Assembly: GCA_029007095.1 (NCBI GenBank)
Contig: JAQXHF010000050.1
Span: forward strand, 1,061 to 65,060
DNA from: Clostridia bacterium
GTDB taxonomy: Bacteria; Bacillota; Clostridia; Oscillospirales; Acutalibacteraceae
Reading direction: 5' to 3'
Length of the DNA: 64,000 nucleotides
Part shown: positions 43,603 through 50,199 of the stretch, in pieces
Numbering within the stretch: position 1 is the first letter of the stretch
How the letters are laid out: every line of letters begins with the position of its first letter
Program-made: the position numbers and the translations under genes
The notes under the pieces: model-generated
Told to the model about the DNA's origin: nothing
Seen by the model: the letters and a program-made list of their open reading frames with translations, nothing else
Databases searched by the model: none

Positions 43603-46600
43603 TTAAAACCCGAAAAAGCTGATTTGCGTACTCTGAGGTAATCCTTCAAGCGCGCCGCTTTGTTCCAGAGTTTCCATAACTGATTTGCTTATTCCTGCAC
43701 GCTGCTGCAAATCGTCACGGGACATATATTCTCCCTCGCCGTCATCGCGGGCTTTCATAAGTGAAATCGCGGCGGATTCGCCTGTTCCCGACATAGAGGC
43801 AAAGGGCAAGCGTATTTTTCCGTCCTCAATTTTGTAAACAGTCGCGTGGGATTTATACAAATCAACCGGCAGGAACTCGACTCCGCGAGCCATCATTTCG
43901 TTGACGACCTGCATAGCGACAAACATATTTTCTTCCTTTGCGGTTGCGTCCTTACCCTTTTCGGTGATGGACCGCATACAGCGCTTAACCGCGTCTCTTC
44001 CGTTCATTATAGCAACGGTGTCGAGATCTTCGCCGCGGACGGACATATAAGTTGCATAATATTCGGTAGGGTAATAAACCTTGTACCACGCGAGGCGCAT
44101 TGCGGCAATAACATATGCGGCGGCATGAGCCTTGGGGAACATATATTTTATCTTCATACAGGAGTCAATGTACCATTGCGGAACATTGTGCGATTTCATT
44201 GCATTGATGTGATCCTGCGTCAGAAGCTTTGTTGCGTTTCCTTTACGGACTATTTCCATAATCTTGAACGCCATATCGGGTTCAAGTCCTTTGTGCATCA
44301 GATACACCATAATGCTGTCACGAGTACCGATAACCTCGGAAATTGTGCAGGTTCCGTTTTTGATAAGGTCCTGAGCATTGCCGAGCCAAACATCGGTACC
44401 GTGAGAAAGTCCCGATATTTGAAGCATATCCGAAAAGTTTTTTGGCTTTGCGTCAAGCAGCATCTGACGGACAAACGGCGTACCAAGCTCAGGCAGGGAT
44501 AGCGTTCCCGTTTCGCAGGAAATCTCATCGGCAGTTACGCCTAAGGGTTCGGGGGAGGTAAGAAGCTGATAAAGCTTAGGATCGCAGACATCTGCTTCAA
44601 ATACTTTAACTCCGGTAAGATCTTCAAGATGCTTATAAAAGGTCGGAACATCATGACCGAGATTATCGAGCTTCAGGATTGTATCGTGAAGCGAATGGAA
44701 ATCAAAGTGAGTTGTCCTGAGTCCGCCGCTTACATCGTCTGCCGGGTGCTGTATCGGAGTGAAATCCTCCGCGTCATTATCAGCAGGGATAACAACCATT
44801 CCTCCGGGGTGCTGACCTGTTGTGCGCTTAACTCCGACGCAGCCTTTGGCGAGCCTTTCTTCCTCGGCTCGGTTCACGGTAAGTCCGTTGACTTCGAGCC
44901 ATTTTTTGACAAATCCGTAAGCTGTCTTTTCTGCAACTGTGCCGATTGTTCCGGCTTTGAAGGTATGGTCTTCACCGAAAAGCTCCTCTGTGTAACGGTG
45001 AGCGTAGAATTGGTACTCACCGCTGAAATTAAGGTCGATATCGGGCTGTTTGTCGCCTTTAAATCCAAGGAAAGTTTCAAACGGAATATCGTGTCCGTCA
45101 CGGTGCATGGGAATTCCGCAGTTAGGACAATTCTTCGGCGGCAGGTCGAAGCCTGAGCCTACCGAACCGTCTTCAAAAAATTCACTGTGCTTGCACTTTT
45201 CGCAAACATAATGCGGAGGGAGGGGATTTACTTCGGAAATACCTGCGGCGTGAGCTACAAACGACGAGCCGACGCTGCCTCGCGAACCGACATAGTATCC
45301 GTGTTCTTCGGAGTTCTGAACGAGCTTCTGCGCGATCATATACAAAACGCCGAATCCGTTGGAAATTATGGATTTAAGCTCCTTGTCAAGTCGTGCGGCA
45401 ACATTTGGCGGAACAGGATCGCCGTAGTCGCGTTTAGTCCTCTCCCAGCAAATTCTCGTAAGGTCCTCGTCTGCGCCGTCAAGGCTCGGAGGGAAAGTAC
45501 CTCTCGGAAACGGAGTCATATCCGCTTCGCAGAGGTCTGCTATTTTATTGGTATTTGTAATTACGACTTCGCGAGCCGTTTCTTCACCGAGGTAAGCAAA
45601 TTCGGCAAGCATTTCGTCGGTAGTCCTGAAAAACAACGGAGCTTGCTGCGACGCGTCCTTAAATCCCATTGAAGTCATAAGAATTTCTCTGTAAACCGAG
45701 TCGCCGGGATCTCTGAAATGCACATCACAGGTAGCAACGGTCAGCTTGCCGAGCTTGTCCGCAATGCGAATGAGCTTCTTGTTAAGCTCTTCCAAGTCCT
45801 CGACAGTTTTGAAACGCTCATAGCGCTCATCGTTGCTTCTGAGCATAAACGAGTTGTTGCCGGTCGGCTGAATTTCAAGATAATCATAAAAATCGGCTAT
45901 CTTTAAAAGCTCATCATCGCTTTTTCCGTCAACCATTGCGTGGTAAAGCTCTCCGGCCTCACACGCGCTTCCTATAAGAAGCCCCTCGCGGTATTGCATA
46001 AGCCTGTGACGGGGAATCCTCGGTCTGCGCTTGAAAAATTTAAGATTTGAATCGGTTATAAGTTTATAAAGATTTTTAAGTCCCTGAGTATTCTTAGCAA
46101 GTATAATTATATGATAGGTTTTCTCGGCTCTGACCTCGTCTGCATATTCATCGGGTATTTCGTCATCAATTCCGAAACCGTATTTGTCGTAGAAAGCGTC
46201 ATCGTTTACGAGGTAGCCTTCCATGCCGTAGATTATTTTGATACCTGCCTTTGCGGCGGTATTGCAAGCCTCCGGGAAAGACTGAACAACGCCGTGATCG
46301 GTTATGGCGATTGCCTTGTGTCCCCAAGCGGCGGCTCGGCTGACTAAATCCTTTGCGCTTGATATTCCGTCCATAGCGGACATATTTGTATGCAGGTGAA
46401 GCTCGACTCTCTTTTCCTGAGAGGTATCCTGCTTTTCGATTTTTTCGATTTGGGTTACGGCTTTTGCGTCAAGGATATATGTGTGCATATAACTGTCCAT
46501 AGTTATCGCACCTCGGATGAGCACGGTCATACCGTCCTTTATCGAGTTTACAAAGTCTTCGCATTTTTGCTTATTGCCGAAAACCTTGACGGGGTAGGAG

Positions 46601-47400
46601 GAGGTATAATCGGTTATGTTGAAGCTTATAATGCTGAATCTTCCGTCTTTTGAAGATCTGACTTCTGAGGAAAATATATCGCCCCATACGATAATTTCTC
46701 CGTCATCGGGCGTACATTCAGCGATTTTTTTGGGCTTTCCCTTGACTATCGTGCCGAAAAGAGCTTTTGCATTCGTTATTGATATCGGCAAATCATCGTA
46801 AGCCTGTGCTTTCGGCTTCTTCTCCACAGGAGCTTTTGAAGCGGCGACAGGATCGGAACGGACAGCCGTTACGGCTATCTTTTGATTTTCATTACTTTGA
46901 ATTTTTTGCAGAACTGCGATGTCGTCCTGCGGCTTCTCGGAGCTTTGAATCTGAACCGTAAAACGGCGGTCAAATCTTTCTGAAATAATATTTGATATAA
47001 ATTTATCGCAGCCGAGATTTACAAGAATATCGCGTCCGTTTTCGGCAAGGTTTATTTTAACGGTATTTGCAGAAACAGAGTATTCTGCCCCGTCGAGAAT
47101 TTTTTGCGAAGCAGGGAAATTGATGTAAACTTCTTTTATTATAGGAGCAAGACAGTCCTCGTTGAAGCTTTCGGGAGGAAAGTGAAATTTGAAATCGAGA
47201 TGTTTAAGCCGCATTATATTTTTGAGCTGTTCACCGGTGGATTTTATTACGGAGATATCAACAGGCATGGGAAAATTAACAAGCATACTCACGCTTCTTT
47301 CGCTGAGGCTTGCTTCTATTTTTTCCACCGTTGCAGAGCCGAAATATGCGGCGCAGCCCGGATCTATGTATTCACCGAATAACTCTAAAAATGTTTTCAA
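43603..47400 (-). CDS. polC: PolC-type DNA polymerase III alpha subunit, lacking the 3'-5' exonuclease insert
   Basis: RVELHLHTNMSAMDGI...AITDHGVVQSFPEA (PHP), ...YHIIILAKNTQGLKNLYKL..., polymerase core, Zn-finger CEKCKHSEF...CPNCG. 1265 aa. Confidence 0.93.
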   Translation of the reverse strand: MKTFLELFGEYIDPGCAAYFGSATVEKIEASLSERSVSMLVNFPMPVDISVIKSTGEQLKNIMRLKHLDFKFHFPPESFNEDCLAPIIKEVYINFPASQKILDGAEYSVSANTVKINLAENGRDILVNLGCDKFISNIISERFDRRFTVQIQSSEKPQDDIAVLQKIQSNENQKIAVTAVRSDPVAASKAPVEKKPKAQAYDDLPISITNAKALFGTIVKGKPKKIAECTPDDGEIIVWGDIFSSEVRSSKDGRFSIISFNITDYTSSYPVKVFGNKQKCEDFVNSIKDGMTVLIRGAITMDSYMHTYILDAKAVTQIEKIEKQDTSQEKRVELHLHTNMSAMDGISSAKDLVSRAAAWGHKAIAITDHGVVQSFPEACNTAAKAGIKIIYGMEGYLVNDDAFYDKYGFGIDDEIPDEYADEVRAEKTYHIIILAKNTQGLKNLYKLITDSNLKFFKRRPRIPRHRLMQYREGLLIGSACEAGELYHAMVDGKSDDELLKIADFYDYLEIQPTGNNSFMLRSNDERYERFKTVEDLEELNKKLIRIADKLGKLTVATCDVHFRDPGDSVYREILMTSMGFKDASQQAPLFFRTTDEMLAEFAYLGEETAREVVITNTNKIADLCEADMTPFPRGTFPPSLDGADEDLTRICWERTKRDYGDPVPPNVAARLDKELKSIISNGFGVLYMIAQKLVQNSEEHGYYVGSRGSVGSSFVAHAAGISEVNPLPPHYVCEKCKHSEFFEDGSVGSGFDLPPKNCPNCGIPMHRDGHDIPFETFLGFKGDKQPDIDLNFSGEYQFYAHRYTEELFGEDHTFKAGTIGTVAEKTAYGFVKKWLEVNGLTVNRAEEERLAKGCVGVKRTTGQHPGGMVVIPADNDAEDFTPIQHPADDVSGGLRTTHFDFHSLHDTILKLDNLGHDVPTFYKHLEDLTGVKVFEADVCDPKLYQLLTSPEPLGVTADEISCETGTLSLPELGTPFVRQMLLDAKPKNFSDMLQISGLSHGTDVWLGNAQDLIKNGTCTISEVIGTRDSIMVYLMHKGLEPDMAFKIMEIVRKGNATKLLTQDHINAMKSHNVPQWYIDSCMKIKYMFPKAHAAAYVIAAMRLAWYKVYYPTEYYATYMSVRGEDLDTVAIMNGRDAVKRCMRSITEKGKDATAKEENMFVAMQVVNEMMARGVEFLPVDLYKSHATVYKIEDGKIRLPFASMSGTGESAAISLMKARDDGEGEYMSRDDLQQRAGISKSVMETLEQSGALEGLPQSTQISFFGF

Positions 47401-47414
47401 TTTTACACTTCCGT

Positions 47415-48464
47415 TTAAATTTTTTCTATTTCTTTTACTAATTCAGTAACAATATCTTTTTCTTCGATTTTGCGTATTATTTCGCCTTTTTTGAAAAGCA
47501 TGGCGCAGCCGTCGCCCCCGGCGATACCGATATCGGCTTCATGAGCCTCACCCGGTCCGTTTACAACGCAGCCCATAACAGCTACTTTGATGTTTTTTTT
47601 GCAGTCTTTCAGAGCGGCTTCGACTTCATTGGCAACCCTTATCAGGTCGATTTTGGTGCGGCCGCAGGTGGGGCAGGAAACTATCTGAACTCCGTCACGG
47701 CGAAGTCCGATAGCTTTGAGAATATCAATTCCCGCATACACTTCATTCACCGGATTGTCCGTCAGCGAAACTCTTATGGTATCGCCTATACCGTGGAGAA
47801 GCAGACTGCCGATACCGGCGCTTGATTTAATAAGTCCCATACGGGCGGTGCCTGCTTCGGTAACTCCGAGGTGGAGAGGATAGCTACATTGCTGAGCGAC
47901 TGTTTCATAGGCGCTTATCATATTTTTGACATCTGATGATTTGATAGAAATTACAATATCGTCGAAATCGAATTTTTCAAGCAAAGACGCATGGTACATC
48001 GCGCTTTTTGCCATAGCTTCGGGTGTAGGCGCGCCGAATTCGGCAAGGATTTCTTTCTCGACCGAACCGGAATTTACACCTATCCTTATAGGAATATTTC
48101 TTGCGCGGCATGCTTTGACAACTTCTTTTACACGGTCGTCAGAACCGATATTACCCGGATTTATGCGTACCTTGTCAACTCCTGCCGCGACCGATTCTAT
48201 CGCAAGACGGTAATCAAAGTGAATATCCGCGACTATGGGAGCTTTTACCGCTTCTTTTAAGGCAGGAATCAGCTTAACTGCCTCTTTATCGGGGATAGCG
48301 GCTCTTATTATCTGACAGCCGGCTTTTTCAAGTTCAACAGCTTGCTTAACACTTGCTTCAATATCGTGAGCAGGTTTATTTAGCATTGATTGGACGCTTA
48401 TCGGCGCGTCACCGCCGACAAGTACGCCGCCGACCGATACTTGCTTTGTTTTTCGTCTTTCCAT
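47415..48464 (-). CDS. ispG: 4-hydroxy-3-methylbut-2-en-1-yl diphosphate synthase
   Basis: VSVGGVLVGGDAPISVQSM...RINPGN...SCPTCGR...MGCVVNGPGE. Confidence 0.95.
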   Translation of the reverse strand: MERRKTKQVSVGGVLVGGDAPISVQSMLNKPAHDIEASVKQAVELEKAGCQIIRAAIPDKEAVKLIPALKEAVKAPIVADIHFDYRLAIESVAAGVDKVRINPGNIGSDDRVKEVVKACRARNIPIRIGVNSGSVEKEILAEFGAPTPEAMAKSAMYHASLLEKFDFDDIVISIKSSDVKNMISAYETVAQQCSYPLHLGVTEAGTARMGLIKSSAGIGSLLLHGIGDTIRVSLTDNPVNEVYAGIDILKAIGLRRDGVQIVSCPTCGRTKIDLIRVANEVEAALKDCKKNIKVAVMGCVVNGPGEAHEADIGIAGGDGCAMLFKKGEIIRKIEEKDIVTELVKEIEKI

Positions 48465-48541: not shown

Positions 48542-49132
48542 TTAAATATGCCAAGAGATGTTTTCTTTTATAATTTTTGCCGGTACTCCTCCGTTAACAT
48601 CATGAGTAACTACGGCTCCGGCGGCAATGACGCTTCCTCGTCCGATAGTTACCCCTTTAAGTATTTTAGCACCCATTCCAATCCAGACATCATCTTCAAT
48701 TACTATCGGTGCGGATTTCTTTTGATTGCCGGAAATAAGATGATTGTCGCTGTCCCGGATAATAACATCTTCTGCAATGATTACATTTTTGCCTATCGTT
48801 ATGCTTTCATAGCAATAAATTTTGCTGTCACAATTACAATAACCGCTGCCTATTTTTAATTCGGCATTTTTCATTACGCTCAATTTACATCCGGTATAAA
48901 AGGTAAATTCTCCGTCGCAGCTAATCTTTGAACCTTGACCGATTTCAATATAACCTGCGGTTTTTCTCTTTTGTTTAGAGTTGAGCGGAACATTGAAATA
49001 AATCAGTCCGCTAACATCAATTTTACTTGATTTATCTTTAACAACAGAAACGGGACGATAGCAATAAAAGTTTTTGCAAACCTTTGTTATTCCTCTGAAA
49101 AACAAAAGAATCTCATTTAAAAATTGTTTCAT
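48542..49132 (-). CDS. Hexapeptide-repeat (LbH) acetyltransferase
   Basis: ...[19 protein letters not shown]...[35 protein letters not shown]. Three consecutive ATGs (49138/49135/49132) directly follow the GGAGG formed by the last codons of rseP. The third has the best spacing. Confidence 0.7.
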
Positions 49133-49134
49133 CA

Positions 49135-50199
49135 TCATCCTCCGACTATCAATACCCAAATATCTTTAAAAGTTATAGCAAGCATAAGAAGAAGCAGAAT
49201 AACAAGACCGATTGCGTGTACCAAACCCTCGCGTTTAGGATCAACAGGCTTGCCGCGAACAAGTTCTATCAGGAGGAAAAACAGTCTTCCGCCGTCAAGA
49301 GCGGGAATAGGCAGGAGGTTAAATACACCGATATTTATTGATATCATCGCCATAAGGCTTATCATACCCGAATAATCCTTATCTGTCTTAGAACTCTCGG
49401 CGACCTTTGAAACGGTATCAACTACGCCGACAGGTCCGGAAACATCCTTGAATGAATATTTGCCTGTTATCAGGTCAAAAACGCTCAGCCATATCATTCT
49501 GAATGTGCTTGCAGACTCTTTGAAAGTATCTTTTATAATTGTTTTAGCCGTTCTGTCCGTGCCGAAAACAACTATTGAATAGGTTGGAATTTCCGCATCG
49601 GTAAGCTCGATTTTTTCACCGTTTCTTTCGATAGTGATATCAGCTTTACCGTCGGCATTTCTACCGAGCAGATAATATATATCGAGGTAATAATAAATTC
49701 GTTTACCGTCTATTTTGATTATTTTATCGTTTTGCTGTAAACCGCCGTAGGAGGTAACTTTCTTATCATCTATTATAAAACCGTTTACATAGCTGCTTCC
49801 GGAAAGACTGTTGCTTATTCCCTGTGAAATTCCGACAAGCATAAGACCGAGAATTATATTGACGAGAGCGCCGGCAACAACTATTACGATTCTTTGCCAG
49901 CACGATTTTTTGTTAAAGGCGTTTTCGTCTTCGCTGTCCTCGTCCTCACCCTCCATACTGACATATCCGCCGATAGGCAGAAGCCTGAGAGAGTAGGTGG
50001 TATTGTTCTTCTTTTTGCTGAAAAGCTTAGGCCCCATTCCGATAGCGAATTCGTTAATTTTTACTTTAAAAAGCTTCGCAAAACAGAAGTGACCTAATTC
50101 GTGTGTTATTATTATCAATCCAAAGAAAAGAATGGCCAGAACTATCGTCCATTTGTCGAGAATTGATGACATTATACTTGAAAAACTGAGTAACTGCAA
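49135..50199 (-). CDS. rseP: RIP (site-2) zinc metalloprotease RseP/RasP
   Basis: ITHELGHF (HExxH), PDZ region, [11 protein letters not shown]. Start is uncertain: TTG 50199 or ATG 50172. Confidence 0.85.

Follow-up and report, generated by a model that had tools for sequence, protein, structure and literature searches.

The window, meaning the whole 64,000-nucleotide stretch analysed here, carries on its minus strand a polC gene whose product lacks the DEDDh exonuclease insert. The features of this gene, and one stand-alone exonuclease gene encoded elsewhere in the genome, are listed below.

43603-47400, minus strand: polC, 1265 aa, PolC-type DNA polymerase III alpha subunit without the DEDDh exonuclease insert (open reading frame list and profiles)
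46411-47400, minus strand: N-terminal region (residues 1-330), with PolC N-terminal domain II (PF11490 at residues 87-195, E 3.8e-6) and an OB fold (PF01336 at residues 256-302, a weak match), covering positions 23-408 of profile NF001688
46198-46404, minus strand: N-terminal half of the PHP domain (residues 333-401; PF02811 at 333-505), with metal ligands H335, H337, D344, H369, and E394
46117-46206, minus strand: site of the missing exonuclease, a 26-aa acidic linker AFYDKYGFGIDDEIPDEYADEVRAEK (residues 402-427) and flanking residues
45706-46119, minus strand: C-terminal half of the PHP domain (residues 428-565), with metal ligands H430, C480, D559, and H561
44221-45465, minus strand: polymerase core of palm, thumb, and fingers (residues 646-1060; PF07733 and PF17657)
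43633-43884, minus strand: tandem helix-hairpin-helix domain (residues 1173-1256; PF14579, E 3.9e-12)
43612-43626, minus strand: C-terminal QISFF (residues 1259-1263), a candidate beta-clamp-binding motif that aligns with QMSLF, QLSLF, or QISLF of relatives
Contig C27 of the same genome (G000; L001:1474-2001), minus strand: stand-alone DEDDh exonuclease, 175 aa (PF00929, E 1e-32)

The polC reading frame starts with a TTG codon and is unbroken, without a stop codon or frameshift. The whole protein scores above the cut-offs of the PolC equivalog profile NF001688 (1493.7 bits against 873) and of TIGR01405 (1339 bits against 1043). It is collinear with PDB 3F2B from the OB fold through the C-terminus in a single-stretch alignment (residues 229-1263, 1143.8 bits), which settles the PolC fold. 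The preliminary description of this DNA, which had called the product a PolC of 1265 aa with no frameshift, is thereby upheld. Pfam orders the domains as N-terminal domain (NTD), OB, PHP, Pol3 core, and HhH, with the OB fold preceding PHP; the matched families are PolC NII, PHP, DNA_pol3_alpha, finger, and HHH_6. The core contains PDIDLNF (residues 786-792), KLDNLGHD (910-917), and a Cys4 zinc module (HYVCEKCK...CPNCG). PDIDLNF is present in 63/65 aligned PolCs (window PolC included), among which the KLD motif and GSRGSVGSS are also conserved. C-terminal motifs of the QISFF type bind the beta clamp.

Between the two PHP halves, a DEDDh insert of roughly 200 aa is replaced by the linker, whose net charge is about -6. 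Positions 46117-46206 encode residues 399-428 (NDD-AFYDKYGFGIDDEIPDEYADEVRAEK-T), and the flanks IIYGMEGYLVNDD and TYHIIILAKNTQGLKNLYKL, quoted in the preliminary description, are both found in the reading frame. NF001688 is matched in two stretches, profile positions 23-408 and 606-1444, and the exonuclease segment at ~409-605 is unmatched. Counted from residue 398 to 430 of the window PolC, the interval is 33 aa long, versus 183-212 aa in the 26 exonuclease-containing PolCs aligned. These results confirm an exonuclease-less (exo-less) PolC and agree with the earlier claim that the domain is cleanly absent from between PHP halves joined by a ~27-aa acidic linker; the linker proper is 26 aa. 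PF00929 (RNase_T) was not found anywhere in the window PolC by Pfam at E<=1, and neither Pfam at this threshold nor NCBIfam detected an exonuclease elsewhere in the reading frame. The earlier argument that proofreading must come from elsewhere also holds.

An exo-less PolC is not new. The variant was published in 2014: 6% of PolCs lack Exo, and all of these come from Clostridia or Negativicutes with a DnaE1 as well (Timinskas, Balvociute, Timinskas and Venclovas, NAR 2014, PMC3919608). The literature already counts these proteins as PolC (PMC3919608). They share with the window protein the NTD, OB, PHP, Pol3, and HhH domains, the lack of Exo, a clostridial host with a DnaE1-type polymerase, and a conserved PHP metal site. 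The window's host likewise falls in the Clostridia, one of the two groups that define the subgroup (Clostridia or Negativicutes). There is no difference in kind; the window represents a further lineage, an uncultured Acutalibacteraceae-like gut/rumen genus.

Counterparts of this architecture have also been engineered. Gka-PolC-deltaN-deltaExo (PDB 3F2B/3F2C/3F2D) and Sau-PolC-deltaN-deltaExo have the same Exo boundaries within PHP and a short linker in place of the domain. Unlike these laboratory-made constructs, which also lack the N-terminal domain, the window PolC is the product of a natural full-length gene that keeps it, and its 26-aa acidic linker differs from theirs. Because the linker sits at the point where crystallographers cut the G. 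kaustophilus and S. aureus enzymes, the fold and polymerase activity should be kept. The S. aureus construct, from which residues 415-609 were removed, polymerises fast (kpol 330 per second; PMC3656037).

A candidate proofreader lies within the window PolC itself. Its nine PHP ligands spell HHDHEHCDH, a motif that is intact in 146/146 PolCs (65 aligned, 80 further relatives, and the window PolC) and that serves as a criterion for calling a PHP domain 'active' (PMC12926913). C480 occupies the metal-binding Cys position, equivalent to C670 in G. kaustophilus PolC and C669 in C. thermocellum PolC. The C669Y substitution in C. thermocellum PolC, in which the Exo domain is also present, produces a roughly 30-fold mutator (bioRxiv 10.1101/2021.07.30.454558). 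That result is genetic, and the substitution might act via structure, not catalysis. In M. tuberculosis DnaE1, the PHP domain is the proofreader (PMC5636811). M. tuberculosis DnaE1 (PMC5636811) and Thermus thermophilus (Tth) DnaE1 (Stano et al. 2006) are both C-family replicases that proofread by PHP, carry the same nine-residue trinuclear site, HHDHEH[C/H]DH, and have no DEDDh partner domain. Those enzymes are DnaE1, whereas the window protein is a PolC. The motif is equally intact in relatives that have the exonuclease, so that its conservation is not a mark of the exo-less forms. To our knowledge, 3'-5' exonuclease activity has not been demonstrated biochemically for any PolC PHP domain.

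The partner polymerase keeps an equivalent site. Searches of the genome with PF07733 and NF001688 gave only this PolC and one DnaE, with no second polC. The single DnaE (1167 aa, contig C4) is DnaE1-like rather than DnaE3-like by profile and PHP ligands; it exceeds the NF005298 cut-off (1694 bits against 1260), and alignment with Taq DnaE places all nine ligands. MutS and MutL are also present in the genome.

The window protein is probably a functional PolC replicase of the described exo-less class, and its proofreading most likely occurs in cis through its own PHP domain. The PHP site would then be an active 3'-5' exonuclease and the actual proofreader. The preliminary description had named a stand-alone DnaQ-like protein and PHP activity as possible sources of proofreading, with altered fidelity as a third option; the evidence favours PHP activity over the stand-alone protein. 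Under the proposed mechanism, the trinuclear metal site of PolC would proofread in cis, the DnaE1 of the genome would retain its equivalent intact PHP site, and the DEDDh insert may have been lost repeatedly in the family because PHP and DEDDh nucleases are redundant in Clostridia that carry both PolC and DnaE1.

Exo-less PolCs are common in the host's family. A survey of PolC architecture across the Acutalibacteraceae-like family found about 38/150 genera to be exo-less. The number of losses was not addressed by Timinskas et al.; here, we infer at least seven independent losses within this one family (AU test, p = 5e-5). One relative (G094) retains a catalytically dead exonuclease remnant. 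At least 14/150 genera have no PolC match at E<=1e-100, and all five of those checked have only DnaE; in an RpoB tree, three of these five DnaE-only genera nest inside a mostly exo-less clade. These states can tentatively be arranged as a stepwise and repeated dismantling of PolC in one family, from an intact exonuclease through a dead remnant and the exo-less form (reached at least seven times) to no PolC, although we hold this series to be somewhat less probable than not. If it is true, PolC+DnaE1 Clostridia could do without the DEDDh proofreader, and in the end without PolC, because DnaE1 with its PHP domain can take over. The family would in that case provide a natural series in which to ask what nuclease proofreads, and what polymerase replicates, in the still uncharacterised PolC+DnaE1 system.

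The same distribution can be read against proofreading by the window PolC. PolC may be a secondary polymerase that is not proofread, with DnaE1 and its own PHP domain carrying out the bulk of accurate replication and exonuclease loss marking one step of dismantling. The PolC-less genera, their nesting in a mostly exo-less clade, and the dead remnant all agree with this possibility, which was also raised by Timinskas et al. (PMC3919608). Exo-less genomes are smaller as well (mean 1.74 Mb vs 2.15 Mb). However, exo-less PolC is under clear purifying selection: it remains full-length, keeps every catalytic, zinc, PHP, and clamp motif in the 38 genera and 80 relatives, and has persisted through many speciation events after the exonuclease was lost. 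Invariance of the nine PHP ligands would also be unexpected if the nuclease activity were unneeded. An unproofread, declining PolC is unlikely.

Proofreading in trans is less likely still. According to this explanation, the 175-aa DEDDh protein, derived by fission of the PolC exonuclease, would proofread PolC and/or DnaE1 as epsilon does in E. coli. A search for stand-alone DEDDh exonucleases in the genome found this protein and a KapD-like DEDDh. The 175-aa protein has its catalytic residues (D17, E19, D102, H155, and D160) and motifs (DIETTG, HNIGFD, and HRALSD) intact, a fold and motifs that it shares with E. coli epsilon (DnaQ). It aligns with positions 423-585 of the 1445-position PolC profile (E 7e-40), precisely within the segment that the window PolC lacks, and its best PDB match is 2P1J, the T. 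maritima PolC exonuclease domain. Two PolC-less genera (G173 and G180) have homologs with 42-46% identity. Yet the protein scores equally against DinG-type and other DEDD families, and proteobacterial DnaQ is more distant from it than the PolC exonuclease and DinG-type DEDD domains are. Only 19/57 genomes of the genus encode it (15/32 of those at least 90% complete), whereas the tested members are exo-less without exception (25/25), and searches at E<=1e-12 did not detect it in most of the 38 genera with exo-less PolC. Within the genus, its copies are 58-64% identical, compared with 75-93% for PolC among the closest relatives. The neighbouring genes vary among species; they encode transporters and a glycosidase and have no role in replication. 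Unlike DnaQ, the protein lacks both an alpha-binding tail at the C-terminus and a clamp motif: the exonuclease domain occupies residues 12-172 of 175, leaving no tail, and no QL[SD]LF-like motif was found in its sequence. As an obligatory general replacement for the missing domain, the protein is rejected on account of its sporadic spread, fast divergence, and non-syntenic, non-replication context.

Although the source genome is a 146-contig MAG, an assembly or binning error that collapsed the exonuclease segment out of the contig, or a pseudogene, is so improbable that it can be set aside, because the frame is unbroken, the linker is near-identical in a congener (L028), and the exo-less form recurs in frame in all 25 genus genomes tested, in 38 genera, in 80/80 related loci, and on more than 100 independent contigs of up to 1.68 Mb. 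The NF001688 match is split in 25/25 genus genomes, each with a single open frame of 1252-1300 aa except for one copy that is cut by a contig end. Among the matches listed, PF00929 is absent from at least 120 homologs from separate assemblies. One apparently long match (L101) was rejected as an insertion, as it consists of PolC and a neighbouring open reading frame.

Taken alone, the window PolC carries little weight, being another example of a variant catalogued in 2014. The family-level picture, which combines exo-less genera, repeated independent loss, a dead-exonuclease intermediate, genera without PolC, and a PHP site that does not vary, may be of use to anyone looking for a natural experiment that sets PHP against DEDDh proofreading. 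Antibiotics of the ibezapolstat class target PolC, and gut commensals whose PolC is divergent or missing may differ in their response to them.

Branch lengths bear on whether fidelity is altered. In the exo-less lineages, raw lengths from root to tip are greater by a factor of about 1.3 for both PolC (0.955 vs 0.721) and RpoB (0.654 vs 0.515), but the exo-less branch is the longer one in only three of five phylogenetically independent sister pairs. Lower fidelity would fit the longer exo-less branches seen in these raw lengths, with the sister pairs standing at three to two.

The preliminary description held that the PolC encoded in the window lacks the DEDDh 3'-5' exonuclease (RNase_T, PF00929) normally inserted in the PHP domain, and this feature is genuine. 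The sequences quoted there are found in the polC open reading frame (ORF), which sits in the usual rseP-ispG-polC neighbourhood:

43603..47400, minus strand: polC ORF, 1265 aa, TTG start
47415..48464: ispG, with polC directly downstream
48542-49159, minus strand: hexapeptide-repeat acetyltransferase-like ORF of 205 aa, between rseP and ispG
49135-50199: rseP, its end overlapped by the 205-aa ORF

The protein exceeds the cut-offs of two NCBIfam PolC equivalogs, NF001688 (1493.7 bits; cut-off 873) and TIGR01405 (1339 bits; cut-off 1043). Its Pfam matches comprise N-terminal domain II, a weak OB fold, PHP (residues 333-505), DNA_pol3_alpha, the finger domain, and HHH_6, and no RNase_T/DEDDh match was found anywhere in the ORF at E<=1. 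The match to the PolC profile is split into positions 23-408 and 606-1444 of 1445, leaving about 200 exonuclease positions unmatched. Positions 46117-46206 (residues 399-428) specify NDD, followed by the linker AFYDKYGFGIDDEIPDEYADEVRAEK and a T. In a MAFFT alignment, the stretch between residues 398 and 430 spans 33 aa, compared with 183-212 aa in 26 exonuclease-containing PolCs.

Judged from its sequence, the polymerase of this exonuclease-lacking (exo-less) PolC is intact: it conserves PDIDLNF in the palm, the KLD motif, GSRGSVGSS, the Cys4 zinc module, and QISFF at the C-terminus. QISFF, which lines up with QMSLF and QLSLF of relatives, is a candidate beta-clamp-type motif. Residues 229-1263 align in a single unbroken stretch (1143.8 bits) with PDB 3F2B, a G. 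kaustophilus PolC crystallised after its N-terminal and exonuclease domains had been deleted by design; therefore, the natural deletion matches the engineered one. The corresponding construct of S. aureus PolC, with residues 415-609 deleted, reaches a polymerisation rate of 330 per second (PMC3656037). From such constructs, a deletion at this site is known to permit folding and catalysis.

The window's protein belongs to an already published class of PolC variant. PolCs without the Exo insertion were put at 6% and, but for a single additional copy in Thermotogae, were confined to Clostridia and Negativicutes (Timinskas et al. 2014, PMC3919608). Both classes pair PolC with DnaE1, and a summary table gives the internal exonuclease as absent in 16% of PolCs of the PolC+DnaE1 system; how often it was lost is not discussed in the text (PMC3919608). 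A PolC-profile survey of one genome per genus across 150 genera of the Acutalibacteraceae-like family revealed that the exo-less form is common. Roughly 89 genera encode a PolC that includes the exonuclease segment, and 38 have a complete exo-less polC (open frames of 1163-1363 aa). Approximately five more look exo-less, their genes being cut by contig ends. In 14 genera, PolC had no match at E<=1e-100. A repeat search at E<=1e-8 in five of these (G093, G132, G145, G173, and G180; completeness 97-99% in each case) again found no PolC, just a DnaE (1123-1234 aa).

On a PolC tree from which the exonuclease columns had been left out, nine state changes are needed, at least seven of them forced by well-supported branches, and the sister genus of the source genome has the exonuclease (100% SH-aLRT). 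A single exo-less clade is rejected (AU test, log-likelihood difference 535, p = 4.7e-5). An independent RpoB tree agrees: it requires 12 changes (at least eight forced), recovers the same exonuclease-containing sister, and groups three of the five genera confirmed as DnaE-only into one clade within a mostly exo-less group. Linker sequence and length (11-37 aa) vary between exo-less clades. The simplest reading is that the domain was deleted repeatedly and independently, and that PolC itself was sometimes lost afterwards. In one relative from another genus of the family (G094:C1:52100-57500, locus L054), PolC retains the PHP motif and carries a shortened 183-aa insert at the exonuclease site, with D-DDK in place of DEDHD at the five DEDDh positions. 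The insert looks like a catalytically dead remnant and may be an intermediate between the intact and deleted states. In DnaE-only G173, a 437-aa open frame matching PolC-profile positions 443-620 may be a PolC relic. Outside the family but within the order, G025 (locus L053) has an exo-less PolC (1135-aa open frame, 11-aa linker, very long branch of 1.02) and, elsewhere in the genome, a 177-aa stand-alone exonuclease homolog; its loss looks like a separate, more derived event.

Proofreading by the exo-less PolC probably occurs through its own putative PHP nuclease. An 'active' PHP is defined by nine ligands, HHDHEH[C/H]DH (PMC12926913), and all nine are intact here: H335, H337, D344, H369, E394, H430, C480, D559, and H561. 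They are invariant in this protein, in 65 aligned PolCs (39 exo-less, 26 with the exonuclease), and in 80 further relatives. In M. tuberculosis, DnaE1 is proofread by its PHP domain (PMC5636811). Clostridia, according to a 2026 survey by the same group as the 2014 study, typically carry three proofreaders that appear active, namely PolC PHP, DnaE1 PHP, and PolC DnaQ (PMC12926913). Redundancy between PHP and DEDDh in PolC+DnaE1 Clostridia would leave the DEDDh domain free to be lost repeatedly. The family is a convenient natural series for asking whether the PolC PHP domain proofreads.

Alternatively, PolC could be unproofread, secondary to DnaE1, and on a path to loss. DnaE1 has been raised as a possible main replicase in the PolC+DnaE1 system (PMC3919608), and the DnaE-only genera, three of them nested among mostly exo-less relatives, fit such a course. 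However, the conserved catalytic motifs and PHP ligands of an intact polymerase make it rather unlikely. The sole further C-family polymerase in the genome is a 1167-aa DnaE on contig C4 (NF005298, 1694 bits, over the cut-off), whose nine PHP ligands are identical to those of Taq DnaE (2HPI); a profile search of the genome for a second polC found none. MutS, MutL, and MutS2 are encoded. Root-to-tip lengths are ~1.3x longer in exo-less lineages for both PolC and RpoB, and mean genome sizes, rounded and from MAGs, are 1.74 Mb (exo-less, n=38) and 2.15 Mb (exonuclease-containing, n=83). Since the lineages are not phylogenetically independent and only three of five clean sister pairs agree with the trend, no conclusion of lowered fidelity is drawn.

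The preliminary description also pointed to stand-alone DnaQ-like proteins, and the genome encodes two DEDDh exonucleases:

L001:1474-2001 (contig C27), minus strand: minimal DEDDh exonuclease, 175 aa; DIETTG, HNIGFD, and HRALSD intact
L002:1435-2289 (contig C100), plus strand: KapD-like DEDDh exonuclease, 284 aa, with a C-terminal CxxC...CxxC zinc ribbon

The latter gene immediately follows spoIIGA-like and sigE-like genes. Proofreading in trans by the 175-aa protein in this particular genome is quite improbable, even though its catalytic motifs are intact and it matches precisely the PolC-profile segment missing from PolC (423-585, E 7e-40). It is present in only 19 of 57 genus genomes (15 of the 32 that are >=90% complete), while all 25 tested for PolC are exo-less. 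Across the 150 genera, nearly all its matches are exonuclease domains within full-length PolCs, and most exo-less genera have no match at E<=1e-12. DnaE-only G173 and G180 have stand-alone homologs (197-205 aa, 42-46% identical). Among solved structures, the 175-aa protein is closest to the T. maritima PolC exonuclease domain, and its scores are equally high for DinG-type and other DEDD families. Orthologs within the genus are 58-64% identical, compared with 75-93% for PolC among the closest relatives. Here the gene sits between genes for an MFS transporter and a GH38-like glycosidase; in a congener its neighbours encode a TrkH-like transporter and a further MFS transporter. Sporadic and fast-evolving, it shows no synteny with the G007 ortholog. 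The nuclease domain takes up the full 175 aa, which leaves no epsilon-like tail. With this sporadic, divergent, non-syntenic distribution and no tail, the protein is probably not a general replacement.

An assembly artefact is essentially excluded as the source of the missing exonuclease, since independent assemblies share the architecture: the identical split profile match occurs in 24 of 24 other genus genomes searched (single open frames of 1252-1300 aa, apart from a single copy truncated where its contig stops), the best 120 protein homologs (1267 aa long and 84-93% identical, spread over many contigs of up to 1.68 Mb in ENA, Logan, NCBI, and JGI) all lack PF00929 in precomputed domains, and the exonuclease is absent from 80 of 80 related loci of named assemblies (gut MAGs of humans, ruminants, horses, and other hosts, labelled Acutalibacteraceae, Oscillospiraceae, Ruminococcaceae, or Clostridia). 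The source genome is itself a MAG (1.85 Mb, 146 contigs, 97.8% complete), and the linker is almost unchanged in a congener: AFYDDYGFGVDDEIPSGYIEKVRAEK.
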